Counted from the stretch's first letter, positions 25,826-55,465 are shown. The stretch: DNA of 64,000 nt from an uncultured Gammaproteobacteria bacterium (GCA_964448725.1 CAYVAJ010000001.1:71525-135524), one strand, 5' to 3'. Translations and numbers: made by a program. The notes: generated by a model from the sequence alone, not told the origin.

Positions 25826-25854
25826 GTAACTGTTTTTCACACGTTTTCCTCTTT

Positions 25855-29753: not shown

Positions 29754-30659
29754 TTATCCGCAGATATTGTGTTCTCGAGGAAATACTGCGCCTGGGGAAA
29801 GCTCATAATGGAGATGGACTCCTGTACTATACCCAGTATTACCCATTCCTCCGAGATAATCACCTTTTTTTACTGTCTGCCCTTGTCGCAGATGAGAAAC
29901 GCTATTTGAAAGAAGATGACCATACAATGCCCATGTTCCATTTCCTTCAATGATTATATGGGTTCCGTACCCATTTCCGGAACAGAGATTGTAGTAGGTA
30001 TTACATCCGGTAACAGTAAGAGTAGTGATCACTCCATCAAGAGTTGCATAAATAGGTGTCCCTTCAGCCATTACAATATCAACTGCGTTTAATGACCCAT
30101 GAGTAAATCCTCCTGAGTAGGGACATTGTGCAATATCAAATCTTCCGTTAACTGGCCATCCCCCCAGTGTATTAGGATCAATACTTCCTATAGGAGAAGA
30201 GTTTGGTTGTTCTGTAGTAGGATTACCAACTCGTACTCTTACTCTTTCACTTGCCTGTCTTTCGGGAGACGAAGGAGGGAGTCCTTCTTGACAGCTTACT
30301 GTTTCACACCAGCCTGTTGTCTGATTACATACTACATTTCCTCCTCCACCAGAAGTGCAGCTCGGAGAAAGAGTCTCACAATATCCAGGTGCTTGACGGC
30401 AGTCTGGACCTCCTGAATTAAGGGTTATGTTTTGTGATTGACAATCTGTATTTGCAGAGCATACTCCTTCCCCTGCAGGTCCTAGATTGCCACAGAAATA
30501 GGGATGAGTTGTAGGGCAGTTGTTGGTAGTTTGCGCAAAACTCGGTTGACTGGTACCAAAATACGCTCCTATAAAGAGTAGGAGAATAGGAAGAATATAC
30601 ATCCAAGAAGAAGATAAGAGGGTTTTGGATAGAAAGGAGCCTATAACTTTACCAACCAT
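29754..30659 (-). CDS. secreted M23/LytM-family metallopeptidase with Cys-rich N-terminal domain
   Basis: C-terminal GYGTHIIIE...ALYGHL...GVHLHYEL (HxxxD / HxH M23 motifs); more than 15 Cys in the N-terminal 120 aa; signal peptide ending in AQ. Confidence 0.75.
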   Translation of the reverse strand: MVGKVIGSFLSKTLLSSSWMYILPILLLFIGAYFGTSQPSFAQTTNNCPTTHPYFCGNLGPAGEGVCSANTDCQSQNITLNSGGPDCRQAPGYCETLSPSCTSGGGGNVVCNQTTGWCETVSCQEGLPPSSPERQASERVRVRVGNPTTEQPNSSPIGSIDPNTLGGWPVNGRFDIAQCPYSGGFTHGSLNAVDIVMAEGTPIYATLDGVITTLTVTGCNTYYNLCSGNGYGTHIIIEGNGTWALYGHLLSNSVSHLRQGQTVKKGDYLGGMGNTGYSTGVHLHYELSPGAVFPREHNICG

Positions 30660-30734
30660 TATTTCATCATAGCAAAATAAAAGACATTCGCACAATTATT
30701 ATAAAAATGAGAAAAATGTTTTTTTGTCTCACAA

Positions 30735-31281: not shown

Positions 31282-33213
31282 TTATTCCGGTATTGTTCCC
31301 CACAGATGATCCGCACACGCCCAGTACTCAAAGGGCCCAGCGTTTCCTGGTTCAAATAATAGTTTATTATAATTTATTGCATTAGATGTCTGCTTTCTCC
31401 AGTCTACATCTCCATGGTCAAACTCGTTTGCTCTCCCTCTTCCCATTTGATATAGCCCCCATGCTCCTGCGGGGTCAGGGGTTCCGATACTCTCCTGAGA
31501 TGCATAGGCATTTGGATTAAAACCTGATTCACACGGAATAATATTATTAAACCATTCATCGGCATATTGTGGGTCAAGCTCTTTGAGTAGTGTATAGAGT
31601 TTGCTTTTGTCGCTTGGACGTCGGGCAGCAAGCAATGTACATGCAGGATCACCGAAATTCGCTCCAGTATCATCATCATAATAAGGATTATTGAGTGCGT
31701 AGTCTCCCGTATAGTAACCGTCGCAGGTTTCGGCATTGGCAGGTGTTTCTTCTCCTGAGCTAATAGGGGAAGCGCTTCCTCCAACCTCTTCTGCAGTTGC
31801 TTGATTATCTACATAAATATCATTTTGTGTTGGCTTTACGGTTAACAAAAATGTTTGATTAACAGTCTGAGGAGAAGAAGTACTTGAACTACCAGTATAT
31901 ACTTGTGCAAGTGCACTCATTCGATTAGAGAATCTTTGCATGTTTTCTCTATACCAGCTCCCCCAACCTTGCATTGTTGCACTCCAATTATCACGTGCTG
32001 CAATATCACCTGCGATCTCAAGAGAATTAGCTATAGCATTGATAGCTGGGTCCATAAGGAGAATAGCAATTAACTGTCGTGCTTGTGCTTGCTGTGGTGA
32101 TCCGTCTGGTGTTCCTGGAGATCCAGCTTCTTGCACGATTTGCTCTATTGATTTTGCAGGAAATGTGACTGGATTTGTTATCCCGCCTTCATCAATTACT
32201 TTCTGTCCAACTCTTTGGACTGTTGCTGCGTCACCTGATCCATATACAGCAATAAAGTCATCAACCAAATGATCACTTACCTGGGCAACTTGGACTCCCC
32301 CTACTTGCCAACCACCAGAATAGAATCCTCCTGCACAGCCCATGTTAATATTTATGTCTTTCATGTCTCTACAGTTCCAGGCGTAGGGATTTGCGGCTGA
32401 ACCTTCGATTGCGACTGTCCATATAACAGAAAGGAAGGGGTCTGCGTATTTAGGATCGTTATTGTGGACTTTTGATAAAATATAATTTTGATATTGATTG
32501 ACTAGACTCCCGAGTCTATTTGCCCGCTCAATCGTCTCAGGCGCGAAAGCAATATCTGATTCGCCATTGGGTACTGGGAGATTATAAGGTGCTTGGGTAT
32601 ATTTTGTAACATCTATCTGCGTTGTCTGCGCAGGAGGAACAGTTGGTCCGACAATGGTTAGATTATCATTAAGTGACCATTTGACACGTGTTACTTTCCC
32701 TGATGAATCTTTTTCTGCAGTGTAATTTCCTGATGCACTCACAAACTCTGTGTTAGCAGGGATAGGATCATATACCATGACATTTCCGGTTCCGGAATAG
32801 GAAACATTGATGGTATAGGTGATATTTTCTCCGTTACCAATTGCTTCAGGACCAGACTTCTGGAGTGTTACATTTGAAGGCGTTCCATCGCCTGAAACAG
32901 GAGAAGGAGTTGGTTGAGTAGTAAAATAGCTGTCATAATCTGCATCGTCTCCAAGAAGGATAAATATAAGTAGCAGTATGATAATAACAATAATAAGAAT
33001 AACCCAAAACCAAGGATTTGCAGCCATTGCTCCAGTACGTACGACTGTCATGGCAGTTCTAAGTCTTCTAATGTTTCTTGAGGCGTTTTTTATTGATTGA
33101 GCTCGTGCACGTAATCGTCTTGCATTAGAAACTGCATTATTTGCACGATCTATAATACCTTTTCTCTCATCACTTTGTTGTGGCCTTTGTAGAGGGTTTT
33201 CTCCGTTATCCAT
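31282..33213 (-). CDS. VirB1-like lytic transglycosylase (SLT domain) with TM anchor and Ig-like/DUF11-like region
   Basis: C-terminal IIPCESGFNPNAYAS...GAWGLYQM (SLT catalytic Glu and the GLMQ-type motif); N-terminal TM WFWVILIIVIIILLLIFILL; start overlaps the VirB4 stop by 8 nt. Confidence 0.65.
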   Translation of the reverse strand: MDNGENPLQRPQQSDERKGIIDRANNAVSNARRLRARAQSIKNASRNIRRLRTAMTVVRTGAMAANPWFWVILIIVIIILLLIFILLGDDADYDSYFTTQPTPSPVSGDGTPSNVTLQKSGPEAIGNGENITYTINVSYSGTGNVMVYDPIPANTEFVSASGNYTAEKDSSGKVTRVKWSLNDNLTIVGPTVPPAQTTQIDVTKYTQAPYNLPVPNGESDIAFAPETIERANRLGSLVNQYQNYILSKVHNNDPKYADPFLSVIWTVAIEGSAANPYAWNCRDMKDININMGCAGGFYSGGWQVGGVQVAQVSDHLVDDFIAVYGSGDAATVQRVGQKVIDEGGITNPVTFPAKSIEQIVQEAGSPGTPDGSPQQAQARQLIAILLMDPAINAIANSLEIAGDIAARDNWSATMQGWGSWYRENMQRFSNRMSALAQVYTGSSSTSSPQTVNQTFLLTVKPTQNDIYVDNQATAEEVGGSASPISSGEETPANAETCDGYYTGDYALNNPYYDDDTGANFGDPACTLLAARRPSDKSKLYTLLKELDPQYADEWFNNIIPCESGFNPNAYASQESIGTPDPAGAWGLYQMGRGRANEFDHGDVDWRKQTSNAINYNKLLFEPGNAGPFEYWACADHLWGTIPE

Positions 33214-35629
33214 GGTTTAGTGGACTGGTATTTGGTTCTGTACCAGATGCTGACGGAGCAGGAGGTGTTCCAGAGGGCTGTGGAGGGGTGGCTTGCTGGA
33301 CAGTAGCATCTTGAGCAGAAGGTGCGGTATTTTGTGGAACAGATTGTGCAGGGCTACTTTGTGGAGCACCAAATGAGAGTGGAGCCGCAACTGGTTCTGT
33401 TTGCGGTATAGCTGCTGTGTTTTCTAAAGGAGGTGGTGGTGTTTGTTGAGTATTTTCAGGCATAGGAGCAGGAGCGGGAGTGTTTTGTTGGACAGGCTGA
33501 GTTTGAGGAGCGACATTTGGAGTCTCTGATTCCGCAAGAGCTTCTGTAATAGTATCAGGAAGCTTTTCTTCCATTCCTTCATCAGAGGGAGCAGGGCTTG
33601 GTGGTGTTTCTTGTTCTTGTTGATTTAATAAATCTTGTGGTTTTGAAGTAATTAAATCATATTCAAATTGTGACGCAATAAATTGAGCTGAAATATGATT
33701 TTGGCCAGCAAAGAGTAGTCCTTCTCCAACTTGCGCGGTAAGTAGAAATTGTTTTTCTCCCTCAGAAAGGAAAAATGTTTTTGCTAAGGCCTCAACTTCT
33801 GCAGTTCCTTGTTTGAGTAATATTTGAATAGATGAGTTAGACACGATTGCTTTACCGTATTCATTGTTAATAAAATCACCAATATCCTGAGTCAGGGTTG
33901 TCATTCCTAAGTAGTATTTGCGGGCACGTTTTGCGATTCCTTGCAAGAAGCTAGCAGAATCTGGGTATTTCATCATATACCATGCTTCATCGACGATAAG
34001 CAAGCGTTTTTTCAGCTTATTACGAACACGGCTCCAGATAAAGTCTAAAATAACATGCATAGCAATAGGGCGAAGCGAGTCTTCTAACTGCTTGATAGAA
34101 AAGACCGTTAACTGACTGCGAATATCATAGTTTGTCTGGGCATTAAGCAGTCCTGCAAATCCTCCTTTAACAAATTTTTCAAGTCGGAATGCAAGTTCTT
34201 TTGCTTCTGCTTCCTCCATGTTAAGGAGTGTTTTATAGAGGTCTTCTAAAATCGGCGGTTCTTTATCATAGGTTGATGGGTCAGGAGTAATTCCTTTCTG
34301 TTTGTAGACGAGTACGAGAGAGCGATCCAGAATTGCTTCCTGAGTTGGAGTCATATCCCCAAGCATTGTTTTGAGTAATCCATGTAAGGAGAGAATTTTA
34401 ATTCCTAACTGAGCTTCAGTTCTGTCTTCAGACAAAAGTGCAAAAGGATTTATTTTTACTGCTGAAGTTTTTGAAAAATCTATGTACTCACCCTCAAGTG
34501 AATCGCAGAGTGTTCGGTACTCGTCTTCAGGGTCAATAATCAAAATCTCTGCATCAAACATCATCTGTCTCAATACTTCAAGCTTAACCAAGAAAGATTT
34601 ACCAGAACCTGATTTACCAAAAACGACTTCATTGGCATTTTCAAATGAAAATCGGTCTACAATGACCAGAGAGTTATTGAGGGTATTTACTCCATAAAGA
34701 ATCCCATCTGGTTGAGAAATTTCATATGAAGTAAAAGGAAATGTTGACGCCACAGAGGTTGTATCCATATTACGGGTAACAAAAAGCTTGTCTGAACCAT
34801 ATGGCATAGTAGTTTTAAAACCTTCTTCCATTTGCAGTGTCGCAGCTTTGAGCAACAACATGTTTGAAGCCAACAGAGTCTGAAGTTGTTTTGATTTTTC
34901 ATTGAGTTCAGGAATGGTGTCAGCGCTAATTGTGACATAGAGACCAAATTGGAAGAAACGTTCTAGTCCTCGTGCAAGTTCTTCTCGCAAAGCAATAGCA
35001 TCTTCTAAGGAAGCCTGAACTTTTGGATCAGGTTCAAGCCCAGCTTTATGATCTGCATCAATTGTTGCTTCCATTTCAGCAATTTTTCGTCTGAGGTTTG
35101 CAAGCACATCTTTACTTTCAATAGGATAGATAAACATCGAAATATTCATCGTCTCTTTATGATCAATTAAAATAGAAAGCCAATTAGGAGATACCTCACG
35201 AGGATAATCAGCCACAAAAAAGGTGCGGAAAAATCGGTCACCAACTCGTACATGCTTAAAATCTATTTCAGCAGAAGCTGGTGCAATGACATCTGCAAGA
35301 GATACAGATCCTTGACGTAGTGCTTCAAGTGTTGCGTGTTGTGCTGCTGCTGATTGTTGGGGTGTAGCACCTTTTGGCATAGCAGCTGCTTGAGGCTGAG
35401 GGTTCTGCTGCATTGTCTGTGGTTGTCCGTTTGCTTGTGGAATAGGTTGAGGAATCTGAGAAGCTGCACCTGCTTGAAGAACAGGCTGTTGCATTTGTGG
35501 AGCAGGAGGATTTCCAGGCATTTGCTGTGTTCCTGGTTGTATAGGCGGCACTCCTGGAGCAGATGCAGGCATGCCCGTCTGGGCAACGGGTTGTGATTGT
35601 GTAGGCTTTTTTTTAAATAAGTCAAACAT
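33206..35629 (-). CDS. VirB4/TrbE/CagE-family T4SS ATPase (ATPase portion) with PQ-rich N- and C-terminal low-complexity extensions
   Basis: Walker A VVFGKSGSGKSFLV, Walker B RLLIVDEAWYMM, and the IAPASAEIDFKHVRVGDRFFRTFFVADYPREV region typical of VirB4; about 100 aa of P/Q-rich sequence at the N-terminus and about 140 aa at the C-terminus. Confidence 0.85.
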   Translation of the reverse strand: MFDLFKKKPTQSQPVAQTGMPASAPGVPPIQPGTQQMPGNPPAPQMQQPVLQAGAASQIPQPIPQANGQPQTMQQNPQPQAAAMPKGATPQQSAAAQHATLEALRQGSVSLADVIAPASAEIDFKHVRVGDRFFRTFFVADYPREVSPNWLSILIDHKETMNISMFIYPIESKDVLANLRRKIAEMEATIDADHKAGLEPDPKVQASLEDAIALREELARGLERFFQFGLYVTISADTIPELNEKSKQLQTLLASNMLLLKAATLQMEEGFKTTMPYGSDKLFVTRNMDTTSVASTFPFTSYEISQPDGILYGVNTLNNSLVIVDRFSFENANEVVFGKSGSGKSFLVKLEVLRQMMFDAEILIIDPEDEYRTLCDSLEGEYIDFSKTSAVKINPFALLSEDRTEAQLGIKILSLHGLLKTMLGDMTPTQEAILDRSLVLVYKQKGITPDPSTYDKEPPILEDLYKTLLNMEEAEAKELAFRLEKFVKGGFAGLLNAQTNYDIRSQLTVFSIKQLEDSLRPIAMHVILDFIWSRVRNKLKKRLLIVDEAWYMMKYPDSASFLQGIAKRARKYYLGMTTLTQDIGDFINNEYGKAIVSNSSIQILLKQGTAEVEALAKTFFLSEGEKQFLLTAQVGEGLLFAGQNHISAQFIASQFEYDLITSKPQDLLNQQEQETPPSPAPSDEGMEEKLPDTITEALAESETPNVAPQTQPVQQNTPAPAPMPENTQQTPPPPLENTAAIPQTEPVAAPLSFGAPQSSPAQSVPQNTAPSAQDATVQQATPPQPSGTPPAPSASGTEPNTSPLNHG

Positions 35630-35723: not shown

Positions 35724-36347
35724 TTACAATATAATATTTGTTACATCTTCAGATTGAAAATCGAGTGAAACTGTTTCCTGGTTATAGAGTTCATACAGTA
35801 CCTTTGCTACTTCGCTTGATTCAAGTGGTCGTGCAGTAAGTCCCATACGTTGAATCTGACTAATTACTCCATTTTGCTTACTTATAACTCCATCACGAAT
35901 TCGTTCCTGTAGTGTTTGTTTCTTGTTATTTGGAGCAGTAGGACCAAGTTCTAAAGAAGAAAAAGGAATAACAACATAGATTTTTTTGTTCAGTAAATTT
36001 TCTCCTTTAACCAGTTCCTGAATAAACTGCTTATACATAACTAAATGCTCTGATATACGGGGATCTTGTGCTTTTTCTACTTTAGCTTCAATCATCTCTA
36101 AATAATCAGTCATATCTACTTTTTTAGAAACAATAAAAATTTGTACTGCAGATGAGAGTGAGTTAAGAAATGACATAAATCCATAAATGCGGGCATTTTG
36201 TTCATCTGCTGAGAGAAGGAAGAAGTTAACAGACGATACCTCTAAAATTGAAGAGGCATTATTTCCTTTGAGGAAAAGAATTCCGTCTTTAATATCTTCT
36301 ACTTCTGTAAACTGTTGAGTTGTTGAGTTGATCTTTGCTTTTGCCAT
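35724..36347 (-). CDS. VirB4 N-terminal-domain-like protein (separate ORF; split VirB4)
   Basis: IKDGILFLKGNNASSILEVSSVNFFLLSADEQNARIYGFMSFLNSLSSAVQIFIVSKKVDMTDYL resembles the N-terminus of Gram-positive VirB4 homologs (TraE/PrgJ/TcpF-like). A 94-bp gap and a different frame separate it from the ATPase ORF. Confidence 0.5.
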   Translation of the reverse strand: MAKAKINSTTQQFTEVEDIKDGILFLKGNNASSILEVSSVNFFLLSADEQNARIYGFMSFLNSLSSAVQIFIVSKKVDMTDYLEMIEAKVEKAQDPRISEHLVMYKQFIQELVKGENLLNKKIYVVIPFSSLELGPTAPNNKKQTLQERIRDGVISKQNGVISQIQRMGLTARPLESSEVAKVLYELYNQETVSLDFQSEDVTNIIL

Positions 36348-36404: not shown

Positions 36405-37724
36405 TCATACCGTAGATACAGGACTTTGTGTTGGTGCTGGCATATTTCCAAACAAGTCTCTTCGTAATTTTTCCCTTTGGTCAATTGAAGTTATCTCAAG
36501 CGGGTTAAATATTTCTCCTTTCATCTCAACTTGTACTGTCTCAAATTCATGATTTTTTCCAGGATCGTCAAAATATATTTTATATGTACCATTAGGAAGC
36601 GGAGTAGCAGAGATAAATTGACCTAAAGCATTTGTTTTAAATGCTCTTACTGGTATCTCATTTGTATCAACTACTTCAACAAGAATGTTTTGAAGCACTT
36701 TTCCACGTGGATCTTTAATTATTCCTAGTACAATATTAGGAATATCAGGAAGAGAGGGGAATCCTGAAGTAAGATTGGATTGTGGGGTGATAGTTTTTAC
36801 AGTATTTGCTTTTGGCGCTTCTTTCTGTGTTGGGGTAACTGGTGTGGCTTGGGAAACTTGCTTTGCTTGCTGTAATACTTTTTGCTGATAAGATGCTGTT
36901 TGCCCTAATGATTCTGCTAATTTTTGCTCTAGATCTCGGACTTTTTGTTCAAGCTCGGCAGTGTATCCTGCTGTTTGTTCGTATGTCCGAATATCTTGAA
37001 TCTCTTTTTTAATCTCTGCAACTTCATCTGCTGCTTTTGGCGCAGGAGAAGCAACTGGTTTTACTACTTCTGTTTGTGCCATTTTTTGGTTAATTTCTTC
37101 TTCTGATACCTGAGGTAATACAGGTTTAACAGGATTGACTACTTCCTGTTCTTTTATAACTGGCTGGACTCTTACTGGCATAACTTTTTTCGTTTCGTTT
37201 GCAAGTGGGGTTGGTGTAACAATAGCTGTTCCAGGATTATCAAAGGAAGCTTTTAAGCTTGCAAAGTACTGCATCTCCTGATTGTCAGGTCTGAAATATG
37301 AGTTGCGCAGTGCACTTGCCAATGCTTGTCTTTTTGCAGTATCTTTTGACTGTTGTGGCGCTTGTTTCGGTTGCTGCGGTTGTTGCACTGTTTTTGGAGG
37401 TTTTAAAAATTCATACTGTGAGAGATCAATTCCTTTTTTGCGATAAATAAACTGATTTTCTCGTGGTACTGACCGGGCAAAATAAATAAGCATTTTATCA
37501 AGTGGTCTACCACCTACTGGTACAAAAGCAAGTGCTACACCAATAAGACCAAAAATTATCATAAGTGGGTACTTGAGCAAGAAGTGGAGAGGAGAGACAA
37601 AGGTAATGGTACAAAAAATTCCCGCTGCAACAACATATGCAAATTGCTTAACAGTCATTGAACCGATAATTTTAAATTTAAACCCAGTAACGTCTTGAGG
37701 AATTGGATGATTCTCCATATACAT
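36405..37724 (-). CDS. PrgI/VirB3-like membrane protein with long C-terminal extension (PQ linker, coiled coil, beta-sandwich domain)
   Basis: N-terminal HPIPQDVTGFKFKIIGSMTVKQFAYVVAAGIF matches the PrgI-family opening motif and is followed by a TM hairpin. The ORF track starts at a TTG; ATG 37724 is chosen. Confidence 0.5.
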   Translation of the reverse strand: MYMENHPIPQDVTGFKFKIIGSMTVKQFAYVVAAGIFCTITFVSPLHFLLKYPLMIIFGLIGVALAFVPVGGRPLDKMLIYFARSVPRENQFIYRKKGIDLSQYEFLKPPKTVQQPQQPKQAPQQSKDTAKRQALASALRNSYFRPDNQEMQYFASLKASFDNPGTAIVTPTPLANETKKVMPVRVQPVIKEQEVVNPVKPVLPQVSEEEINQKMAQTEVVKPVASPAPKAADEVAEIKKEIQDIRTYEQTAGYTAELEQKVRDLEQKLAESLGQTASYQQKVLQQAKQVSQATPVTPTQKEAPKANTVKTITPQSNLTSGFPSLPDIPNIVLGIIKDPRGKVLQNILVEVVDTNEIPVRAFKTNALGQFISATPLPNGTYKIYFDDPGKNHEFETVQVEMKGEIFNPLEITSIDQREKLRRDLFGNMPAPTQSPVSTV

Positions 37725-38039
37725 CAGCGTATAACGTGAAAATTTTAGATTCAAGCATCTCAAACTGTGTCAAAGGACAACAAAAGGTGTGAAAAGGAGA
37801 TAAAAAGCCTTAAAGTGGGCAGAGAAGAGATGGATTGTAGGTATTATGTAATGTCTGTCACTAAAAAATACAATGGAGTATGTTAACATCTGGGTAACTG
37901 AATAGAATTGCTGCCCATCGCGAGAGTTTAATTGTTGTGGCGTGATAGTACAACTGTCCTGGCTCTTTTTTACTGATATATAAGTAATTGCTTATAAAAA
38001 TCAGAATCTTTTTCCTATGCTCATAACATACAAAAAATA

Positions 38040-41801: not shown

Positions 41802-42160
41802 AATTAGGGACAAAGGATTTAATAAAAATATTACCGTTTGATGATCAGTTCAAGAAAGATATACTTGAACGATATGATTTTCTTGATGAAGATCAGAAGT
41901 TCAATATTCAAAATGTGGTCTGGGATACGTATAACCTCTTATTTGATATGAAACTGCAGGAAAATATTGACCTTGCACTTCAGATGGCTGCTCAAAATCA
42001 AGAAAAGTTGGATAAAGATTTTTATGATCGTGTTAAAGAGGTGACAGAGCAAGAGTTTTCGAGTGGAAGTTTTAAGTCAGTTGAACAAATGGATTTAGCG
42101 CAAACTAGAGAAAAGCTTCAAGAAATTTTACAAAAGATCGAAAGTGATGATTCCAATTAA
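41798..42160 (+). CDS. hypothetical acidic protein (120 aa), translationally coupled (ATGA overlap) to the 938-aa gene
   Basis: 4-nt overlap with the upstream stop; no recognised domain. Confidence 0.45.
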   Translation: MKLGTKDLIKILPFDDQFKKDILERYDFLDEDQKFNIQNVVWDTYNLLFDMKLQENIDLALQMAAQNQEKLDKDFYDRVKEVTEQEFSSGSFKSVEQMDLAQTREKLQEILQKIESDDSN

Positions 42161-42168
42161 CTGTTTCA

Positions 42169-42870
42169 ATGCATATACTCTTACTCATTGCTGAGTTAAT
42201 TTTCCTTTTTATAACCTCACGTTTTATTTCCAAATACCTTTTCATGCTTTTTTATAATCTCTTTAGAAAAGAGAGTGTTGCTGCGCGAGTAGTTGCATTT
42301 ATCTTTTTCCCAGGTACTCTTATCCACGAGCTTGCGCATTTTCTGATGGCAAAAACTTTATTCGTTCGTACAGGAAATATAGAATTGATGCCTGAAATAC
42401 AAGGAGATACTCTAAAATTAGGAAGCGTTCAAATTGCAAAAACTGATATTTTGAGACGTTTTTTAATTGGTGTTGCACCTCTTTTGATCGGGTCTATTCT
42501 TCTTATCATTATAATTTACTCATTTTTTAATTTTTTCCCTTTAACGAGCTTTGAATGGAGCTGGCAATATGTTTTATCAGTTCTGGTCGTGTTGTATGGA
42601 ATTTTTGTGATAACAAATACCATGTTTTCAAGTAAAAAAGATATGGAAGGAGCATTAGGCTTATTTATACTGTTAGTATTTTCTCTTTTAGTAATTTTTG
42701 TAGCTGGGAGAGGAGAGTGGGTAGTGAGAGTCATGGAAAATATTATTAACAATCCAACTATTCAGCAATATGTCAATAAAATAACTATATTCTTGTTTTT
42801 CCCAGTCATTATTAACGGTGTCGTGCTTCTCACCTACAATGGATTGAGGAAATTGAGAAAAAGGAATTAA
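42169..42870 (+). CDS. polytopic membrane protein with intramembrane HExxH motif (putative zincin-like membrane peptidase)
   Basis: FFPGTLIHELAHFLMAK within a hydrophobic helix; 5-6 predicted TM helices. Confidence 0.4.
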   Translation: MHILLLIAELIFLFITSRFISKYLFMLFYNLFRKESVAARVVAFIFFPGTLIHELAHFLMAKTLFVRTGNIELMPEIQGDTLKLGSVQIAKTDILRRFLIGVAPLLIGSILLIIIIYSFFNFFPLTSFEWSWQYVLSVLVVLYGIFVITNTMFSSKKDMEGALGLFILLVFSLLVIFVAGRGEWVVRVMENIINNPTIQQYVNKITIFLFFPVIINGVVLLTYNGLRKLRKRN

Positions 42871-43220
42871 AAACCTGGATCAATTATTATTCCTCCATCT
42901 GGATTTCCGCCAACTACATTTTGGTTAACACCTAATATTTCAAAAAAACCATTAAAAAATGCAAATGATAAGAGTATAAAAATAAGACCTATTATTGCAA
43001 ATGTTAATGTTTTTTTTGCAGAGCTGATTGCTTCAGGATCTCCTTGAGATGTAACAAATCTAATACCTGATATGATAATAAAATATAGAGCAACAATTGA
43101 TGACAGTATTATTGCAGCATTAATTAGATTTGAAAAAAGAGGCCAGATACAGCGAAGTGTCGCTACTTGTGCTTCACCCCCCTCTAAGCATCCTTCCCAT
43201 GGTCGTGTAAACAAATCCAT
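42867..43220 (-). CDS. T4SS pilin-like protein (CPR-type VirB2/TrbC-like), paralog 1
   Basis: Shared C-terminal motif IISGIRFVTSQGDPEAISSAKKTLTFAIIGLIFILLSF. Its stop overlaps the stop of the convergent gene (TTAA). Confidence 0.5.
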   Translation of the reverse strand: MDLFTRPWEGCLEGGEAQVATLRCIWPLFSNLINAAIILSSIVALYFIIISGIRFVTSQGDPEAISSAKKTLTFAIIGLIFILLSFAFFNGFFEILGVNQNVVGGNPDGGIIIDPGF

Positions 43221-43284
43221 AAAATAATTATAGTAACTTGCTCGGAAAAAATCTATTTATAATCGAAAGGTAAAAGGATAAAAA

Positions 43285-43719
43285 TTAATCAGTAATTTCA
43301 ACTTGATTTGGTATTAACTTTGGAATTTCAAGTGTATTAATTGATCCTAGCCCAAATATTTCAAGCACAAAATTTAAAATAACATACGCAAGAATCACAA
43401 GGATAAGGCCAATAATAGCAGCAATAATTTGTCCTCGTGCCTCAGAAACTTTTTCTTTATCTCCGCCTGAGACAATCCATTTAATACCACCCCAAATAAG
43501 CCAAATGAGTGCAGCAAGTATTGCAATAAAGAAAAGAGCATTGATTGCAAATCGTACTACTGTATTAATATCCAAATCTATCCCAAACATACCAGGTGGG
43601 CGTAGGTCTACCTTCTCATTACCATCAATTACTGGTTGAGCAAATGCAGGGACTACTGTTTGAAGGTAGACTGCGCTGGAAAGAGTAAGTGCGCCTAGTG
43701 GTCTGAATAATTTTTTCAT
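43285..43719 (-). CDS. T4SS pilin-like protein, paralog 2 (with signal peptide)
   Basis: MKKLFRPLGALTLSSAVYLQTVVPAFAQ signal peptide, then WGGIKWIVSGGDKEKVSEARGQIIAAIIGLILVILAY. Confidence 0.6.
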   Translation of the reverse strand: MKKLFRPLGALTLSSAVYLQTVVPAFAQPVIDGNEKVDLRPPGMFGIDLDINTVVRFAINALFFIAILAALIWLIWGGIKWIVSGGDKEKVSEARGQIIAAIIGLILVILAYVILNFVLEIFGLGSINTLEIPKLIPNQVEITD

Positions 43720-43810
43720 GTCTATATTTATTAGAGCAGTTTTTAAAATGCTTGTCAATAGAGTAATTTATTATCTGTTAGGAAAGGTTAACTCTTAAGT
43801 AATTAAATCC

Positions 43811-44182
43811 CTAGTCAGTACGTGTAAACGGGAATATGCTAATGCCCATAATGCTCCCGACTGTGCTTACTATAACAAACGAGAGAAGGATAACAATAAT
43901 TCCAATGATCGCATAGATGATTGTTTTACGGGCTTTATCAAGTTTTTCTTTGTCGCCACCAGATGTGATCCAGATAATGCCTCCCCTAATGAGGAAAACT
44001 AATGTAACAATTATACCGATAAAGAAAAGAGCGGATATGCCAAAGTTAATAATATCACTTAGCCCAAGCTGATCTTCTAGACTCAAAGGATCTTGAATTG
44101 GTTGATCCTGTCCTGGTAATTTGAGGGCGAGTAATTTTTCTTTCATACTATCTAGTAAAGCCTGGATAGAAAAAAATGTCAA
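43811..44182 (-). CDS. T4SS pilin-like protein, paralog 3
   Basis: IRGGIIWITSGGDKEKLDKARKTIIYAIIGIIVILLSF. TTG start at 44182, or ATG at 44146. Confidence 0.55.
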   Translation of the reverse strand: MTFFSIQALLDSMKEKLLALKLPGQDQPIQDPLSLEDQLGLSDIINFGISALFFIGIIVTLVFLIRGGIIWITSGGDKEKLDKARKTIIYAIIGIIVILLSFVIVSTVGSIMGISIFPFTRTD

Positions 44183-44214
44183 TATAGATGTATGAAAATG
44201 ATAGATAATATTTG

Positions 44215-44237
44215 ACGCCTGCGATTAGCAGGCGTCT
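44215..44237 (-). terminator. perfect hairpin downstream of the lipoprotein gene
   Basis: GACGCCTGCgattaGCAGGCGTC: 9-bp stem, 5-nt loop. The flanking U-run is weak. Confidence 0.35.
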
Positions 44238-44242
44238 GAAAG

Positions 44243-44809
44243 TTACCGATCTGGTAGTGCTTGAAAAGAGGCAAGCATCCTGGGAATTATCCCATTTTCA
44301 GTATATTTCTCAATACTGCCTGGTATTCCTTGGAATCTTACCTCGACTGCTCCATGCGTGCCTTGAGGATCTGTTCCTGTAATTATTGCGATTAAGAACT
44401 CATCCCCTTCGCTTGTTATCCCTTCTAGGATCTGAATATCTCCGTTTTGTTCTTCTCGGATAACATCAATGCGGCTAGAACTTGGACTTCTGAGATAGTA
44501 TGCTATATAACAGTCTCTCCAATCTTTTAAAGTTCCACCATCTGCTTCAATGTCATCAAGCTTACAATGACTTGTAGTTGCAGAGCCGAATCCAACCCTA
44601 AAGACCGATTTGTCACTGTCTGGAGGGATGATGTATGTATATCGACCTTGAGATTCCTCTTTCCAGGATAGAGGCCTATCAAGGGTTACCCTATAGAACA
44701 TCATTGTATACCACTCTTCCTTGGAGGTACTGTTATTCACAGCGCCTTCTGCGTTACTACCACACGCAGCAAGTAGAAGTATGGACAGAACAGCAAAAAA
44801 CCGTACCAT
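44243..44809 (-). CDS. lipoprotein, hypothetical
   Basis: MVRFFAVLSILLLAACGSN lipobox. Own promoter TTGACT-16-TATACT, a ~100-nt leader and a good SD (AAGGAGA). GC looks higher than neighbouring genes. Confidence 0.55.
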   Translation of the reverse strand: MVRFFAVLSILLLAACGSNAEGAVNNSTSKEEWYTMMFYRVTLDRPLSWKEESQGRYTYIIPPDSDKSVFRVGFGSATTSHCKLDDIEADGGTLKDWRDCYIAYYLRSPSSSRIDVIREEQNGDIQILEGITSEGDEFLIAIITGTDPQGTHGAVEVRFQGIPGSIEKYTENGIIPRMLASFQALPDR

Positions 44810-44959
44810 CGTCTGTCTCCTTTCTGAAGAAGTCGTACAATGTGGCGAAAGGTACAACCGACACGGTGTTAACGAGCAAGATAGGAAGAATTTGTTGCCT
44901 CTCTTCCAAATCTTTGTGATAGTATAACAGAAATCTACAACAAGTCAATACTATAGGTT

Positions 44960-46675
44960 TTATCTTGAGAAGCCTGGAAGAGCTAGAATATCGACACCGA
45001 TTATTTCCAGTATAGAGATAGAGAGTATAAGGAAAATAAGTCCAGTTACAGCAGATATAAGAATTTCACGTGCATGACCAATCTTTTCTTTATCTCCTCG
45101 TGAAGTCATAAGGATATATCCTGAATATATAGCGAAGATAAAAGCTGCTACAGTAGCTACACCTAGTAACCATTTTCCCAATGTTGCAATAAATTCTATT
45201 GGTTTTGTGCCAAATGGCCCAATTGCAGTAGCAAATGAAGCACAACGATAAAATTGGGTAGGATCATCAGTTCCCTTATCATTTATATCTACCCATTGAT
45301 TACATGGAAGTGGGCTGTTTTTATCCTCGTCTAGTGCATATATTAACTCTGATTGATTGGGATCAGCTTCTATCTCGTTCGTTTTTATATACGCATTTAG
45401 TACTCCTTGACTATTTTCTCCATGCTCAAGTACGACAAGAATTGGAATATGATAGTATGTAAATCCACCCTGACAATTATCCGTCCTCCAGAAAGAAGTG
45501 TCATTTATCTGTTCATTAATTTTTAGTAGGTAATTTCCGGCCAGAAGCGGTTGTCCATTTGGCTCATTACGTGAAATAATTGTTGAGTTATTATTGAAGT
45601 GGGTCATGAGGGAACCTGTTACTTGGTCTCCAGTTAAGTCACCGCAAAACTCATTTTTGTAATTATTTCCTATACCCTCAAGAACAATTTGAAAATTATT
45701 TACTTTGTTGCCTCCTACTTTAATTTTTTGGCTCAGTCCTATTATTAAAGGATTCTGAGCAGGAATATTTTCGGAAGCATTTTTTTGTTCTTGTCCGTTA
45801 ATAAACAACTTTCCTTTACTAACTGATAATTGTGTTCCAGTAAATATGTTGACTGTAGGATAATTTCTTCTTACATAAAATTCAGCTACTTGAATTGGTG
45901 AGCTCGTGTCTTTATCAAATAAGCTAACCCTATAGATACTTCCTTCATGAAAATAATCTTTTTTTGTATCACAATTTTCTCCAGAAGGCTCTTTTACGGC
46001 ATCAGGTCCATCCCCACACAATGCCGGTAAATCAAGGATATTATTTGTAGTGGACTTTGTTTTTTTCTTTTGACTGCGCTCACATTTTTCTATATCTGAT
46101 TCAAAGCAAACTTCATATTCGCTACTAGAAAGTCCAAAAAAACTTACTGAAACTTCCGGAGTGTATCCATTAATTTCTTCTGGAGGAGGGAGAATTTCAT
46201 ATCCAAAATCGGCAGGATTTGTTGATCTTGCTGGAAGAGGAGTAGGATTGACAATATCTGATGAAGTACTTGGTAATACTTGGATACTGGCTTTACAACC
46301 TTCATGTGTTGTTACTCCACCTCGTTGATTTATAGAGCCTTCTGATACATATACAAAAAGATCATAGCTCCCTGGTCCCAATTGCTCAGAAAATTCATAA
46401 TTAGATTGATTTGTGTACTCATTCTCGAAGTCGACATTTTTACCTTTTATTGTTAATGGGAATGTTGGAAGCTGATTTGTCCCTCTTCCGATATTGGAGC
46501 TTTGGGGTAAAATTGAGATATTATAAGGTTTTCCAAATTCAACTTGACTAGGAGCCTGAATTGTGCAAGTATGATCTGCATCTGTATGAGGAATATGATA
46601 AAAAAGGAAAAAGCTAGTAACTACTAGAAATATGGGTATAATAATAAAAGTTATTTTAGAATATACACGCCTCAT
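44960..46675 (-). CDS. large (571 aa) protein with N-terminal TM, ~480-aa extracellular region and C-terminal T4SS-pilin-like domain (paralog 4)
   Basis: C-terminal YSGYILMTSRGDKEKIGHAREILISAVTGLIFLILSI matches the motif of the three small paralogs. Confidence 0.6.
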   Translation of the reverse strand: MRRVYSKITFIIIPIFLVVTSFFLFYHIPHTDADHTCTIQAPSQVEFGKPYNISILPQSSNIGRGTNQLPTFPLTIKGKNVDFENEYTNQSNYEFSEQLGPGSYDLFVYVSEGSINQRGGVTTHEGCKASIQVLPSTSSDIVNPTPLPARSTNPADFGYEILPPPEEINGYTPEVSVSFFGLSSSEYEVCFESDIEKCERSQKKKTKSTTNNILDLPALCGDGPDAVKEPSGENCDTKKDYFHEGSIYRVSLFDKDTSSPIQVAEFYVRRNYPTVNIFTGTQLSVSKGKLFINGQEQKNASENIPAQNPLIIGLSQKIKVGGNKVNNFQIVLEGIGNNYKNEFCGDLTGDQVTGSLMTHFNNNSTIISRNEPNGQPLLAGNYLLKINEQINDTSFWRTDNCQGGFTYYHIPILVVLEHGENSQGVLNAYIKTNEIEADPNQSELIYALDEDKNSPLPCNQWVDINDKGTDDPTQFYRCASFATAIGPFGTKPIEFIATLGKWLLGVATVAAFIFAIYSGYILMTSRGDKEKIGHAREILISAVTGLIFLILSISILEIIGVDILALPGFSR

Positions 46676-46722: not shown

Positions 46723-48033
46723 TTATTCAGCAAATTTTATACCTTTTCCTTTCACTGTGAGGATATATTGAGGATTATTTGGATCTGATTCTATTTTTTT
46801 GCGTAGCCTATAGACTATCTGATCGAGTGCTTGGTCTGTTACCCCTGCTTGAGTTTTTGAATCAGTCCAAACAGCATTAATAATCTCTTCTTTCTCAGAG
46901 GTCCTTCCTTTATGTATCAATAGATGCTTAAGGAGACGGAATTCAGATGGTGTAAGCGTATCGGTAATATTGACAGACCCTTTGTAAATTTCATTTTGTT
47001 CTTCTTGAAAAGAAAACGGTTCTTTTTCCTCTTTTATAGTTGCTATATATGCTTCAAAAAGTGGAATAGTGATTTCTCCATCGGCAATAAGTCCGACAAG
47101 TTCGAGAAATTTCAATTCATCGTTATGATTATGTAAATGTTTTACTCCGTGTTGTTCCTCAGGTGTGAGATAGTTCCAGATTTCCGTAAGTGCACCACGC
47201 ATTTGTCGGTGTCCAAGTAAATATTTCTCAAAATCCTGAGGAGATTCATTCTCTGAAAGAATGGCTTCATAAGCAATTTTAACGAGCTTGCCATGGCCGC
47301 CAGTGAGTTGTATGAGCTTCTCTCGTGCTTTTTCGTTTTTCTTTCCAGCTACTGTCTCAATATAATTGAGTCTGAAATCAGGCTCATTAGGATGTGCGAT
47401 TTGCATAAATACTGAGTTTCCGATTAAAAATTCATAGAATTCTGAAAGAGTAGAGAGGTCGATAAGTAAATCTATCGGACGTGAGAGTGCAAAAATACAC
47501 GCAAATTTGTATTTTGCCCTGTTCCGTAGTATTTTCAGATTGACAAAAAATTGCTCAGTAAGATCTTGTGTGTATTGATCAAGTCTGTCTATGAGGAATA
47601 TAACAGACATGCCTTTTTCAAGCGCAAGATAATCTATTGATTTTTTTAGGGCTTGAAAGAGGATCAGTTCGTCATTGAACTCAAGTGCCTCTTTTAAAAA
47701 ACTATTGACCTGAGTACTTTCAGTAATCATTCCTCGCTCACTTAACGAGTATGCAAGAGAAATGAGTATAAATTTTGTAACATCTGATAATGGACGATTG
47801 CGGACTTCTGAAAAATCCATATATACAAAATGGTATTTTTCCTGAGCATCTTTTAAATGAAATTCTCGTACTTTACGGTTATAGGCAAGTAGCCTGAGAA
47901 GGCGACTTTTACCTACACCAGGAAGGCCAAGAATTTGGCACGACGCACCTTTTGTAATAAAGCCAATGGTTTTATTGATCTCTTCATGCAAGGAATTTTC
48001 AGGATAGAGTGATTCAAAATATTTAGGGTCCAT
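46723..48033 (-). CDS. P-loop ATPase (AAA/NACHT-like) fused to a C-terminal OmpR/PhoB-type winged-helix DNA-binding domain
   Basis: Walker A ILGLPGVGKSRLLRLLA and Walker B VIFLIDRLDQ. C-terminus TDQALDQIVYRLRKKIESDPNNPQYILTVKGKGIKF matches trans_reg_C. Confidence 0.6.
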   Translation of the reverse strand: MDPKYFESLYPENSLHEEINKTIGFITKGASCQILGLPGVGKSRLLRLLAYNRKVREFHLKDAQEKYHFVYMDFSEVRNRPLSDVTKFILISLAYSLSERGMITESTQVNSFLKEALEFNDELILFQALKKSIDYLALEKGMSVIFLIDRLDQYTQDLTEQFFVNLKILRNRAKYKFACIFALSRPIDLLIDLSTLSEFYEFLIGNSVFMQIAHPNEPDFRLNYIETVAGKKNEKAREKLIQLTGGHGKLVKIAYEAILSENESPQDFEKYLLGHRQMRGALTEIWNYLTPEEQHGVKHLHNHNDELKFLELVGLIADGEITIPLFEAYIATIKEEKEPFSFQEEQNEIYKGSVNITDTLTPSEFRLLKHLLIHKGRTSEKEEIINAVWTDSKTQAGVTDQALDQIVYRLRKKIESDPNNPQYILTVKGKGIKFAE

Positions 48034-48094: not shown

Positions 48095-48451
48095 TTATTT
48101 AGTATTAATTGCTATTTTTGAAAAAATAAGAGTAAGTTCTTGAGCTTCTTTCCAATGTATATTGCATTGCTTAGTTAGTTCTGGAACTGCTCTGATAAGT
48201 ATACGTAACCAGTATTTTGTCTCTTTTGCCTCCTTTTTACAAATAAATATTTTATTTTTAAAATCCTTCTTGCTACTTGCCCCGTTTGCTTCACAATAAT
48301 TTGCTCCTATACTTGTCCCAGATCGTACTAGTTGATTAATAATTGGCGTTACAATTACATTCTTTGGTGCTATTTTACATAAATCTATAATATTTTCAGC
48401 AAAACAGGCTGTTCTTTCTTCTAAGTCATAATTATTTGATATTTTACTCAT
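48095..48451 (-). CDS. four-helix-bundle protein (23S rRNA IVS protein / Avd-like family)
   Basis: VRSGTSIGANYCEANGASSKKDFKNKIFICKKEAKETKYWLRI is the family signature. Confidence 0.75.
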   Translation of the reverse strand: MSKISNNYDLEERTACFAENIIDLCKIAPKNVIVTPIINQLVRSGTSIGANYCEANGASSKKDFKNKIFICKKEAKETKYWLRILIRAVPELTKQCNIHWKEAQELTLIFSKIAINTK

Positions 48452-53815: not shown

Positions 53816-55465
53816 TTAACTTCTGGGACTAGGATTTCGGAAGAGAAAGTTTCTGGCTCTTGACGTCCATTGTCCGCGTATTATATTTCCATTATTATCT
53901 CTTTGAATACGTTGATCCATACGCCGTCTTATAGGATCAGCTATAAACCCTTTACTTTCTCCAGTTCGAGGATCTCGTTCCCATGCTCGTGATGTAATAG
54001 GACTGACAGATTTGCTTACTACACTTGAACCCATGCCGAAAGCCTGTCCAATTGCTGCTTGATATTTTACTGTAGGAGCATGTAGAGCATCTTTTACGAT
54101 GTTTACAACCTCAGGAGTCATGAGAATAATTGCCAGACCAATAAGAGCACCAAAATGCGTTGGATTGATAGGATTACCGATAAGCGGCGGTGTGAAGTAA
54201 TTTGTACCACCCTGGCTGAATACTTGAACGAAAACAGACCCAAGCAAGAACATAAAAAGAGTAACAGGAAAGACTGCTATATATGAAAAAATATGTTTAA
54301 ACCAGCTTCCTGCACTGAGAGGAGAACCAGGTATGAGGCTTCCTGCGATCCAAATAGGAGCAAGCACGGTATCAATAAGAATGAAAAGATATGCTTTAAG
54401 TAATAATATCCATAATCTAAAAAGAGAGAAAAGAATTGCGACCATAATTATAAAAAAGGCAATAAATGAACCGATGTAACCCATAATGTTATTGCCAAAT
54501 AAGCCTCCAAGAGCAAGTCCTAAAGATGATCCTATAACGCCTCCTAAAATATTTCCTCCTACGGGTACTACTGATCCTAATCCGGCTCCTATAACTCCGA
54601 GAACAATAGTTGCAATTGTTTGACCAGCATTCCCTTCAAATACAGTTGCAATAATATCACCTATACTTGAAGCAGAATGTTTTGCTATACTACCAATTCC
54701 GCCTAATCCTCCAGCGGCACCAAATGGAGTAGATCCTTGGAGATTGGTGGGGTTAAGTCCTGCTATGTGGACTCCAGGTATTCCTGCAATTATTTCATAA
54801 AACATGTACATAATAAGATACATTAAATCAATCAGAAAACCTGAAATAGCAAAAGAGAATGTTACAAGTACTAAAACAATGATCGCTCGGGGAATAGCAT
54901 TTTGAATAGTCATGACAGTACGAGGATCTACTTTAAAGCGGAAAATAATACCAAATCCGATGAGCATAAAGATAATGACAAATAGTACATAAACAATATT
55001 CCGGAAAGCTACCCAGGTATTTAAGAGTGGATTGAGGCTGTTAAAGCCTATTCCAGCTTCTTGAGCATAGGTGCCTTTCGCAATACCAAAATTGGACGCA
55101 GTATATTTGATATAGCTGTCAGAATTAATCGGAATATTAAAGCTACCAGCAATCATTGCACTCATTACTCCGATTGCACCGCCTCCATTTTCTACGTAAC
55201 CAATTTTGTTAGTTTCGGGGTCTACTCCTAGACATTTGCCAGTAGGGTTAATCGGGTCTATGCCAGCAAGATGACAGGTCATGGCTGCCATGATTTCAAT
55301 GAGGACAATTTGCGTGCGTGTTCCCATATCTAAAGGAACATCTGCATTTGTCCGTGCAGGGATTTGTGGAGGAGGCTGTGTTGCAGGTGTCTGAGCAAAT
55401 GCAGAGTATGCGGTAAAATTCAGAAAAATAGCGACGAAGAATAGGACAGAAAACAGGCGTTTCAT
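53816..55465 (-). CDS. polytopic Gly-rich membrane protein with signal peptide (VirB6/TrbL-like candidate)
   Basis: MKRLFSVLFFVAIFLNFTAYSAFAQ signal peptide; 8 or more predicted TM helices with G-rich loops. Confidence 0.45.
   Translation of the reverse strand: MKRLFSVLFFVAIFLNFTAYSAFAQTPATQPPPQIPARTNADVPLDMGTRTQIVLIEIMAAMTCHLAGIDPINPTGKCLGVDPETNKIGYVENGGGAIGVMSAMIAGSFNIPINSDSYIKYTASNFGIAKGTYAQEAGIGFNSLNPLLNTWVAFRNIVYVLFVIIFMLIGFGIIFRFKVDPRTVMTIQNAIPRAIIVLVLVTFSFAISGFLIDLMYLIMYMFYEIIAGIPGVHIAGLNPTNLQGSTPFGAAGGLGGIGSIAKHSASSIGDIIATVFEGNAGQTIATIVLGVIGAGLGSVVPVGGNILGGVIGSSLGLALGGLFGNNIMGYIGSFIAFFIIMVAILFSLFRLWILLLKAYLFILIDTVLAPIWIAGSLIPGSPLSAGSWFKHIFSYIAVFPVTLFMFLLGSVFVQVFSQGGTNYFTPPLIGNPINPTHFGALIGLAIILMTPEVVNIVKDALHAPTVKYQAAIGQAFGMGSSVVSKSVSPITSRAWERDPRTGESKGFIADPIRRRMDQRIQRDNNGNIIRGQWTSRARNFLFRNPSPRS

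Follow-up and report, generated by a model that had tools for sequence, protein, structure and literature searches.

The gene array at positions 42867-46675 of a 64,000-nucleotide stretch of bacterial DNA (GCA_964448725.1, CAYVAJ010000001.1:71525-135524; the whole stretch is called the window here, and positions are counted from its first letter) encodes four paralogous type IV secretion system (T4SS) pilins, one of which carries a large extracellular beta-sandwich region. The array is probably the pilin set of a chromosomal, conjugation-derived T4SS of the monoderm (MPF-FATA-like) Patescibacteria type, in which the fused protein, P4, serves as a pilin-anchored, adhesin-like minor or tip subunit. 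Divergent pilin arrays of the Candidate Phyla Radiation (CPR) are already known, and what appears to be new here is the family of ectodomain-pilin fusions and the fixed gene architecture that it heads. The DNA is deposited as that of an uncultured Gammaproteobacteria bacterium. The source organism is an ultrasmall Patescibacteria bacterium of the Microgenomates group, Levyibacteriota-like, and the closest named genome locus belongs to a Candidatus Levyibacteriota metagenome-assembled genome (Microgenomates group, Patescibacteria).

The shared domain and the genes around the array identify the four proteins as T4SS pilins. An earlier reading made from the sequence alone (the sequence-only reading) had proposed four minus-strand paralogues of the CPR-type VirB2/TrbC-like pilins, and this is borne out. 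It had also called for a search with the profile hidden Markov model (HMM) of PF18895, T4SS_pilin, for which the gathering cutoff is 26.6 bits. The four open reading frames (ORFs), with lengths in amino acids (aa), score as follows.

42867..43220, minus strand: P1, small pilin of the terminal class, 117 aa; PF18895 34.8 bits.
43285..43758, minus strand: P2-class small pilin, ORF of 157 aa; PF18895 40.1 bits.
43811..44182, minus strand: P3-class small pilin, ORF of 123 aa; PF18895 36.0 bits.
44960..46675, minus strand: P4, fused pilin, 571 aa; PF18895 25.5 bits, E 1.4e-5, at aa 494-555.

Three of the proteins are above the cutoff and the 571-aa protein is just below it. The C-terminal parts of P1-P4 are 30-40% identical in pairwise comparison, and their alignment contains the invariant pattern G..S.GD.E...A......A..G. 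Each has two hydrophobic helices separated by a short charged loop, as seen in the hydropathy segments and, for P4, in the AlphaFold2 (AF2) model. Ten of ten orthologous small pilins also match PF18895, nine of them above the cutoff, and ten of ten distant members of the P4 family match PF18895 at the C-terminus, eight of them above the cutoff (27-48 bits). A local HMM search of the 64-kb window found no fifth ORF with a pilin domain. Two of the small pilins are probably shorter than their ORFs: P2 likely starts at an internal ATG at 43719, giving 144 aa that begin MKKLF with a signal peptide, and P3 at an internal ATG at 44146, giving 111 aa that begin MKEKLL, as in the gene calls on an identical public contig.

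The direct sequence link to canonical VirB2 is weak. The four window proteins have no match to PF04956 (TrbC/VirB2) at E <= 1, and the matches of orthologues are weak (19.6 bits with E 0.0011, 14.0 bits and 11.7 bits, against a cutoff of 27.9). The supplement of PMC10633639 lists Southlakia pilins that match both PF18895 and PF04956 as well as TrbC/VirB2 and DUF4134 structures, and these proteins bridge the gap. The only NCBIfam family matched by all four pilins is NF045849, a 'pilin-like conjugal transfer protein' of a Mycoplasma integrative and conjugative element (ICE), at 22-28 bits and below the 40-bit cutoff. This match hints that VirB2-like proteins may occur inside monoderm-type T4SSs, and it bears on the question, raised in PMC12102498, of whether Patescibacteria co-opted their pilins from diderm systems. 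A tblastn search of P2 against 72,556 plasmids gave no match.

The weakness of the VirB2 comparison, together with spurious low-scoring matches to Phage_holin_1, DltX and OSTC, would also suit a generic hairpin of two transmembrane (TM) helices, of a holin-like or other small membrane-protein family, that lies near T4SS genes by accident. This explanation is very unlikely. Three of the four window proteins, and 17 of 20 relatives, have PF18895 as their top match and as their only match above cutoff, some 170 sequences keep the loop motif S-x-G-D/N-x-E-K, and the one NCBIfam match is to a conjugal transfer protein. Synteny with VirB4, TrsD and PrgI also speaks against an accidental location, and an array of this kind is essential within the Southlakia T4SS locus (PMC10633639).

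The T4SS genes are in the same chromosomal region as the array. The window contains dnaA and dnaN (24485-27126), tmRNA, SmpB, NrdR with ribonucleotide reductase, and DUF5667. A minus-strand T4SS block starts right after dnaN and includes the following genes.

29754..30695, minus strand: M23 peptidase, candidate cell-wall hydrolase (VirB1 analogue); PF01551 70.8 bits.
33206..35629, minus strand: VirB4-like ATPase; TraG P-loop 116.5 bits.
35724..36347, minus strand: TrsD-like protein, resembling the N-terminal part of VirB4; NCBIfam TrsD 36.1 bits, below cutoff.
36405..37763, minus strand: PrgI (VirB3-like) fused to a CarboxypepD_reg beta-sandwich domain; PF12666 35.9 bits.

The VirB4, TrsD and PrgI genes are 5-13 kb from the array. 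In one related locus, L004, the array adjoins the homologous T4SS genes with a single gene for an HExxH membrane protein in between, and the synteny is conserved. The orthologue of the TrsD-like protein in L005 is annotated as PF26593, TraC-like. Patescibacteria T4SSs have been described as being of MPF-FATA ancestry, with TrsD, PrgI and VirB2-like genes, and as often lying beside dnaA and dnaN in Microgenomatia (PMC12102498); the layout of the window agrees with this description, which supports its interpretation as a T4SS locus. The window ORFs scanned against Pfam showed neither a relaxase nor a coupling-protein domain.

P4 belongs to a family in which the ectodomain is obligately fused to a pilin hairpin. 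A word-indexed homology search found only eight relatives of P4, and an exhaustive search with a profile of the ectodomain alone against 1.84 billion representatives found 184 clusters at E <= 1e-3 and 149 at E <= 1e-10. The pilin domain is present at the C-terminus of 147 of the 153 ectodomain proteins retrieved and ends a median of one residue from the C-terminus, which argues that the fusion is obligate. The six proteins without it are shorter (87-293 aa) and are possibly fragments. No other Pfam domain was found in P4 or in ten distant family members. P4 itself matches the profile of the full-length family. The parts of P4 are as follows.

46577-46675, minus strand: signal peptide, aa 1-33; Ala33 fits the -1 position of a signal-peptidase site and is found in 89% of family members.
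45206-46576, minus strand: beta-sandwich ectodomain, aa 34-490; AF2 model.
44963-45205, minus strand: VirB2-like helical hairpin, aa 491-571; PF18895 and AF2 model.

A pilin placed behind a large, cysteine-containing extracellular region had been predicted, and such a protein is present. The extension was given as 480 aa, and its mature extracellular part is about 457 aa (residues 34-490). Eight cysteines are found in 92-100% of the fused-family members, along with the motifs NN[FY]Q, CxGGFTYY, DP and LPC...C. The pilin hairpin is the best conserved region of the family (alignment occupancy 0.99) and has the same loop motif as the small pilins. The C-terminus of the fused class has a near-invariant (I/L)PGF just after the second TM helix (44960-44978 in P4; P567 in 91% and G568 in 87% of members), and the P1 class ends in PGF or NPxF (42867-42885 in the window). 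This C-terminal PGF motif may be a processing or recognition signal.

The AF2 model of P4 shows an all-beta ectodomain mounted on a helical hairpin. Prediction from the single sequence had a predicted local distance difference test score (pLDDT) of 39.6, and prediction with a 143-sequence alignment had a mean pLDDT of 83.7, mostly above 90 for residues 160-560. The model consists of a signal helix (4-24), an all-beta region (37-489) of apparently about four modules, and two helices (492-524 and 529-563) with pLDDT of 90-96. Fold matches of the model are to strings of immunoglobulin (Ig), fibronectin type III (FN3) and macroglobulin-like beta-sandwiches, which are stalk-like. The sequence-only reading had offered a pilus-associated enzyme or a tip adhesin as the role of this region. 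The enzyme can be set aside, as there is no catalytic fold in the AF2 model or its fold matches and no Pfam domain in the ectodomain. The adhesin is plausible, and the case for it is built from the fold class and the divergence gradient described below.

P4 diverges rapidly, and increasingly so with distance from the membrane. In comparisons of the window with its nearest syntenic relatives, the regulator upstream of P4 is 75-82% identical and VirB4 80%, while P1 is 66-69%, P3 55-60%, P2 49-52% and P4 only 39-41% identical. In a close pair of family members (P0003 and P0004), the neck and pilin hairpin are 96-98% identical, domains D2-D4 70-74%, and the distal domain D1 30%. The first module of the ectodomain (P4 residues 36-135) has only about 20% alignment occupancy over the family. 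Judged from these sequences, such a gradient is typical of surface proteins that contact a variable partner with their tip.

The main rival to an adhesin-like tip subunit is that P4 is part of a wall-spanning stalk or base. According to this explanation it would be docked by its hairpin to the T4SS platform and cross the wall and S-layer in a role like that of VirB8, VirB9 or VirB10, and the small pilins might or might not form a filament. The good conservation of D2-D4 and the neck and the near-invariant cysteines are what would be expected of a structural part, and the FN3 and macroglobulin strings among the fold matches are stalk-like. Most members of the fused family lack the variable distal domain, and other proteins of the locus, the PrgI-CarboxypepD_reg fusion and a Big_5 protein, bear beta-sandwich modules as well. 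Against this, P4 diverges much faster than VirB4, the divergence is strongly skewed to its distal end, and P4 is always encoded with the pilins and the regulator rather than with VirB4, VirB3 or TrsD. On balance a stalk or base component is unlikely, and a tip or minor subunit is preferred.

A different arrangement would have P4 along the whole filament or as a sheath of its own, forming a 'bottle-brush' pilus with radial beta-sandwich spikes. In VirB2-type pili, as in the F- and T-pilus structures, both termini face outward, and additions at both termini are seen here. The P4 ectodomain is N-terminal, and the P3-class pilins of L002 (11233-11895) and L006 (6866-7501), each the first small pilin of its array, have a Cys-rich C-terminal extension of about 110 aa (CPDGSxNYxCG...). 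These two kinds of addition indicate that both predicted extracellular termini can bear displayed modules. A 457-aa domain on every subunit would presumably cause steric crowding, however, and the presence of three conserved, undecorated pilins beside P4 in every locus fits one special subunit among plain ones, so that the bottle-brush arrangement is improbable. A tip or minor position for P4 remains the preferred reading.

The array is a fixed set of pilin classes. It was compared with 13 related loci, for which a metagenome scan with an 8-sequence alignment was among the sources. The gene directly upstream of P4 is on the same strand and encodes a putative regulator.

46723..48033, minus strand: regulator, 436 aa, with an N-terminal P-loop/STAND-like NTPase and a C-terminal OmpR-type winged helix; Trans_reg_C 69.8 bits, weak AAA_16 and NPHP3_N matches.

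The regulator is immediately upstream of the fused pilin in ten related loci (L001-L006, L008, L011, L013 and L014), and a fragment of it is present in L010. Wherever upstream flank is available, the regulator comes before the fused pilin, and wherever downstream flank is available, three or four small pilins come after it. A neighbor-joining tree of the pilin domains contains four orthogroups, each common to 6-13 loci. Every complete array includes the fused class and its sister, the terminal P1 class; P2 and P3 are the middle classes. Local, lineage-specific duplication is seen to some extent, in the P3 class alone.

The N-termini are specific to each class across 8-12 loci. P1, the most conserved paralogue relative to its positional orthologues, has no signal peptide but has a cysteine pair (FTRPW..C...ATLxC) before its first TM helix, which is kept in all eight orthologues, and its C-terminus is PGF. 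P2 has a canonical Sec signal peptide (...VPAFA|QP) followed by two TM helices; the signal peptide is kept in eight of eight orthologues, and this layout is the most VirB2-like of the four. P3 also lacks a signal peptide and starts with MKEKLLxxLxhPG across 12 orthologues. Little or no recognizable Shine-Dalgarno sequence is found upstream of P2 (43719-43800), P3 (44146-44200) or P1 (43221-43260). Hexamers resembling TTGACA and TATAAT are very close to the small-pilin start codons, as in P2, whose ATG is about 10 nt downstream of TTGACAAGC...TCTAAT, and in P1, whose ATG is 7 nt downstream of TATAAT. These hexamer sites were not called by the consensus scan, and they give a hint that the small pilin genes may have separate, near-leaderless transcripts.

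The conserved classes suggest specialized subunits rather than antigenic variants. Multiple paralogues had been taken to imply antigenic or functional variation of the filament, with recombination between copies to be looked for. An antigenic or phase-variation system, in which paralogues are swapped by recombination or differential expression, would be in keeping with the tandem arrangement and divergence of the pilin genes and with the duplications in the P3 class, and the idea has been raised for Patescibacteria arrays (PMC12102498). It is highly improbable here. The paralogues, at 30-40% identity, fall into old orthologous classes in constant order, and the longest DNA tract common to pilin copies is 68 nt at 66-71% identity, so that near-identical tracts suitable for recombination are absent and the copies are not recent lineage-specific duplicates. 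No repeat pair like the template and variable repeats of diversity-generating retroelements (DGRs) was found in the window, and none involving P4; no reverse-transcriptase domain was found among the ORFs scanned against Pfam. In Southlakia the array pilins SEML1_0017-0019 scored as essential, and predicted pilin subunits are called essential, in PMC10633639. Four old, ordered classes with class-specific N-termini, the lack of recombination tracts and the essentiality in Southlakia together fit a heteromeric set better than antigenic variation, and they point to a fixed assembly of specialized subunits. Functional specialization among the paralogues is supported, and antigenic variation is not. 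Hypermutation of P4 by a DGR was considered separately and rejected for the lack of repeats and of a reverse-transcriptase domain among the scanned ORFs; the bAvd-like genes of the window stand alone.

The pilin set suggests a model for assembly. The four classes would be made together downstream of the dedicated NTPase/winged-helix regulator, and all four would insert with both termini outside and the short basic loop (S-x-G-D-K-E-K...R) inside, like VirB2. P2 and P4, whose signal peptides have AxA-like sites, would enter via Sec, and P1 and P3 would insert as short-tailed hairpins by a YidC-type route. A VirB4-driven machine would extract the pilins into an extracellular tube or stalk. P2, which would have a normal cleaved signal peptide, is the strongest candidate for the bulk subunit, and P1 and P3 would be minor subunits. 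P4 could hardly be stoichiometric in the structure and is most likely a low-copy initiator or tip subunit. Its mature N-terminus would consist of about 457 residues of disulfide-braced beta-sandwiches, with the membrane-near domains conserved and the outermost variable or absent in relatives, and the hairpin would anchor this adhesin-like stalk as it is shown to the host cell. In this position P4 would take the role of VirB5 or of a PrgB-type adhesin. No PrgB-type adhesin was found in Patescibacteria (PMC12102498), and with neither VirB5 nor PrgB detected in this group, P4 would supply the function. A tube about 8.6 nm wide and 61 nm long has been seen by cryo-electron tomography (cryo-ET) between the Patescibacterium M. 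amalyticus and its host, and its composition is not established (PMC11880426). It is a hint of a conduit. A tube width of about 8.6 nm matches the widths of conjugative pili.

Several points weigh against this model. No T4SS pilus has been demonstrated for any Patescibacterium, and the choice of the major subunit among the small paralogues is a guess. A 457-residue domain on helix 1 could clash with VirB2-type helical packing, in which case P4 may stay in the membrane, and strings of beta-sandwiches are typical of envelope-spanning stalks too. P1 and P3 lack signal peptides, unlike classical VirB2, and P4 itself is 25.5 bits against a PF18895 cutoff of 26.6. Alignment of the pilin profile with VirB2 of A. 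fabrum (pTiC58) by hhalign is colinear, with P = 0.0027, but its probability is only 11%, and sequence searches of the PDB with the pilin profile and the full family profile gave no pilin. In the window the array is also outside the core operon, with about 5 kb between it and the PrgI gene and 7 kb between it and VirB4.

A broader and doubtful possibility is that the fused family is the missing host-recognition device of the Patescibacteria T4SS. P4 would then be a pilin of VirB2 fold, placed at the tip of a heteromeric pilus or conduit whose assembly it primes, and the variable distal domain would decide which host cells the epibiont can dock with. The four-class set would correspond, in a T4SS, to the priming complexes that minor pilins form in type IV pili, and the lipoprotein slot within the array, described below, could be swappable and encode strain-specific self-exclusion.

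The array resembles those already described in Patescibacteria except for its fused first gene and fixed order. A survey found 441 VirB2-like arrays of 2-11 genes in 383 assemblies, either tandem or interrupted by a non-pilin gene, with a mean identity of 25%, and they were especially common in Microgenomatia and Saccharimonadia (PMC12102498). An array is essential in Southlakia epibionticum (SEML1_0014-0019; PMC10633639), and a 2025 review names the Southlakia array as the one Gram-positive-type T4SS with possible pili (PMC12857230). The arrays of Southlakia, TM7x (the 'Sec-secreted array') and the 441-array set share with the window the PF18895 domain, tandem and divergent paralogues, occasional interruption, and a chromosomal MPF-FATA T4SS near dnaA; the paralogue identity of 30-40% compares with the reported mean of 25%. 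The Southlakia pilin entries in the supplement of PMC10633639 are short (genes of 381-417 bp, with PF18895 domains that end by about residue 180), whereas the window array opens with a 571-aa fusion. The order of regulator, fused pilin and three or four class-specific small pilins is not described in PMC12102498 or PMC10633639, and no description of the ectodomain-pilin fusion or of the fixed four-class architecture was found in the searchable literature including these two papers.

The window pilins also have features in common with better-known T4SS pilins and adhesins. Like canonical VirB2 and TrbC (A. tumefaciens VirB2, RP4 TrbC) they have a short basic loop between two hydrophobic helices, and homologues of VirB3 and VirB4 are encoded nearby; P2 has a long cleavable signal peptide. 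They differ in their sub-threshold sequence similarity, the monoderm host, the lack of signal peptides on P1 and P3, the absence of VirB5, and the presence of four or five co-encoded classes instead of one major pilin. We know of no canonical VirB2 that carries a large globular domain. P4 shares a proposed role, distal contact with the target cell, with the tip proteins VirB5, TraC and CagL and with PrgB, and all are fast-evolving surface proteins. There is no homology between them: VirB5 is a helical, soluble non-pilin, PrgB is a wall-anchored LPXTG adhesin, and P4 would be attached via a pilin hairpin. In type IV pili and type II secretion systems, bulky minor pilins (TcpB/CofB and GspK) prime assembly and sit at the tip. 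Like P4 they combine a pilin module with a large extra domain and are encoded with other pilins, and a low copy number with a part in initiation and binding is proposed. Their fold and machinery are unrelated (a type IV pilin N-terminal helix and a PilB-type ATPase), and the analogy is functional only. Bartonella and Anaplasma similarly have several tandem virB2-like genes in host-associated T4SSs. Antigenic variation or a wider range of hosts has been proposed as the purpose of those arrays, in contrast to the old, ordered and class-specific paralogues of the window with their lack of recombination tracts. Finally, the Mycoplasma ICE proteins Mbov_0395 and MMCAP2_0565 (NF045849) come from an MPF-FATA-type ICE of a wall-less monoderm, and although all four window pilins match the family, scores of 22-28 bits do not make them members.

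Patescibacteria, which live attached to other microbes, account for a large part of bacterial diversity. In the only species tested, the T4SS and the pilin array that belongs to it are essential. The window array by itself is an ordinary example of a published phenomenon. Its fixed, distinct classes argue for a heteromeric structure rather than variation, and in this lineage the array always opens with a beta-sandwich-stalked pilin whose outer end evolves fastest. P4 would be, to our knowledge, the first VirB2-fold pilin with a large displayed domain. It is a concrete and testable candidate for the host-contact element of an essential system, its functions all being deduced at this stage. If P4 is the host contact point, it would be a target for host-range prediction, for antibodies or labeling in enrichments, and for the interpretation of cryo-ET data.

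A lipoprotein gene interrupts the array between P4 and P3. It and the signals around it are listed here.

44243..44809, minus strand: orphan lipoprotein, 188 aa from the ATG at 44809 (ORF to 44857); lipobox LLAAC, AGGAG 8 nt before the ATG.
44921..44948, minus strand: promoter-like site, TTGACT, 16-nt spacer, TATACT, with an upstream TG; 10 of 12 matches, by consensus match only.
44214..44236, minus strand: GC-rich hairpin of 9 bp immediately 3' of the lipoprotein stop codon; -20 kcal/mol, z = -7.06, 0 of 200 shuffles as good.

The lipobox follows a hydrophobic signal segment and reads MVRFFAVLSILLLAAC|GSN. The 3' hairpin marks the downstream edge of the cassette; it is terminator-like and has no T tract. 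The gene had been described as inserted, with its own promoter and Shine-Dalgarno sequence and visibly higher GC. The insertion is supported, and the signals are present at the level of sequence; the GC content is higher (0.429, against 0.33-0.38 for the pilin genes), but the difference is modest, since VirB4 of the same locus has 0.416. The lipoprotein itself is the sole match among 5.8 billion proteins. It is absent from the slot in eight relatives (L002, L003, L005, L006, L009, L011, L012 and L014), where the fused and next pilin genes abut; in some of the loci without the lipoprotein there is a fourth small pilin instead. In L004 the slot is occupied by a different lipoprotein, with no significant similarity (shuffle z = 1.2). 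With its own promoter-like site, ribosome-binding site and terminal hairpin, the gene looks like a self-contained inserted cassette, and these features support its being a lineage-specific orphan cassette inserted in the array. Any role as a VirB7-like accessory or an exclusion lipoprotein would be entirely speculative.

The 3' end of the array is met by a convergent gene for a membrane protein.

42169..42870, plus strand: polytopic membrane protein, 233 aa, about six TM segments, with an invariant FFPGTxIHELxH.

Its stop codon overlaps that of P1. Four orthologues have the HELxH motif and NTMFSSKKDMEG without variation. The protein has no match in Pfam or NCBIfam. It is a candidate for an uncharacterized intramembrane zinc metalloprotease, and it might, speculatively, process pilin leaders. 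The gene is syntenic in L002, L004 and L005 and was not found in more distant loci; this linkage to the array in the closest relatives alone led to its rejection as a universal pilin peptidase.

A second polytopic protein is encoded beyond the regulator.

53816..55465, minus strand: 549-aa protein with a signal peptide and about 7-8 TM segments (TM prediction); syntenic in L002, L003 and L004.

It has no Pfam match. The highly divergent, 'missing' VirB6 of Microgenomatia has been remarked on (PMC12102498), and the 549-aa protein is a candidate for such a divergent VirB6-like channel subunit.

Other proteins encoded in the window may be related to the system. A 1732-aa protein (48578-53776, plus strand) with a Gly/Pro-rich low-complexity stretch and a 938-aa protein (38985-41801, plus strand) that is coiled-coil-rich in appearance flank the array, and neither has a signal peptide, TM segment or Pfam domain. 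A 120-aa protein (41798-42160, plus strand) adjoins the latter. All three have counterparts at matching positions in relatives, with lengths of 1698, 937 and 119 aa in L005, and they are possible T4SS substrates or cytoplasmic accessories. Two genes related to 23S-rRNA-intervening-sequence or bAvd-like four-helix-bundle proteins are at 48095-48451 and 55530-55895, both on the minus strand, the former directly upstream of the regulator. A 3301-aa surface protein (4964-14869, plus strand) has SdrD_B, SpaA and CarboxypepD_reg repeats, two CBM6/CBM35 modules, a polysaccharide-lyase domain and a C-terminal dockerin, and its internal 300-nt DNA repeats are the sole long repeats in the window. It is probably a giant adhesin or enzyme that binds a host or glycans. 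Two of the related loci, L003 (CAYYLC010000002.1) and L004 (CAZIAP010000002.1), are titled 'uncultured Gammaproteobacteria' yet have a Patescibacteria-type T4SS and pilin locus, with VirB4 proteins 71-80% identical to that of the window, and these labels are very likely wrong.

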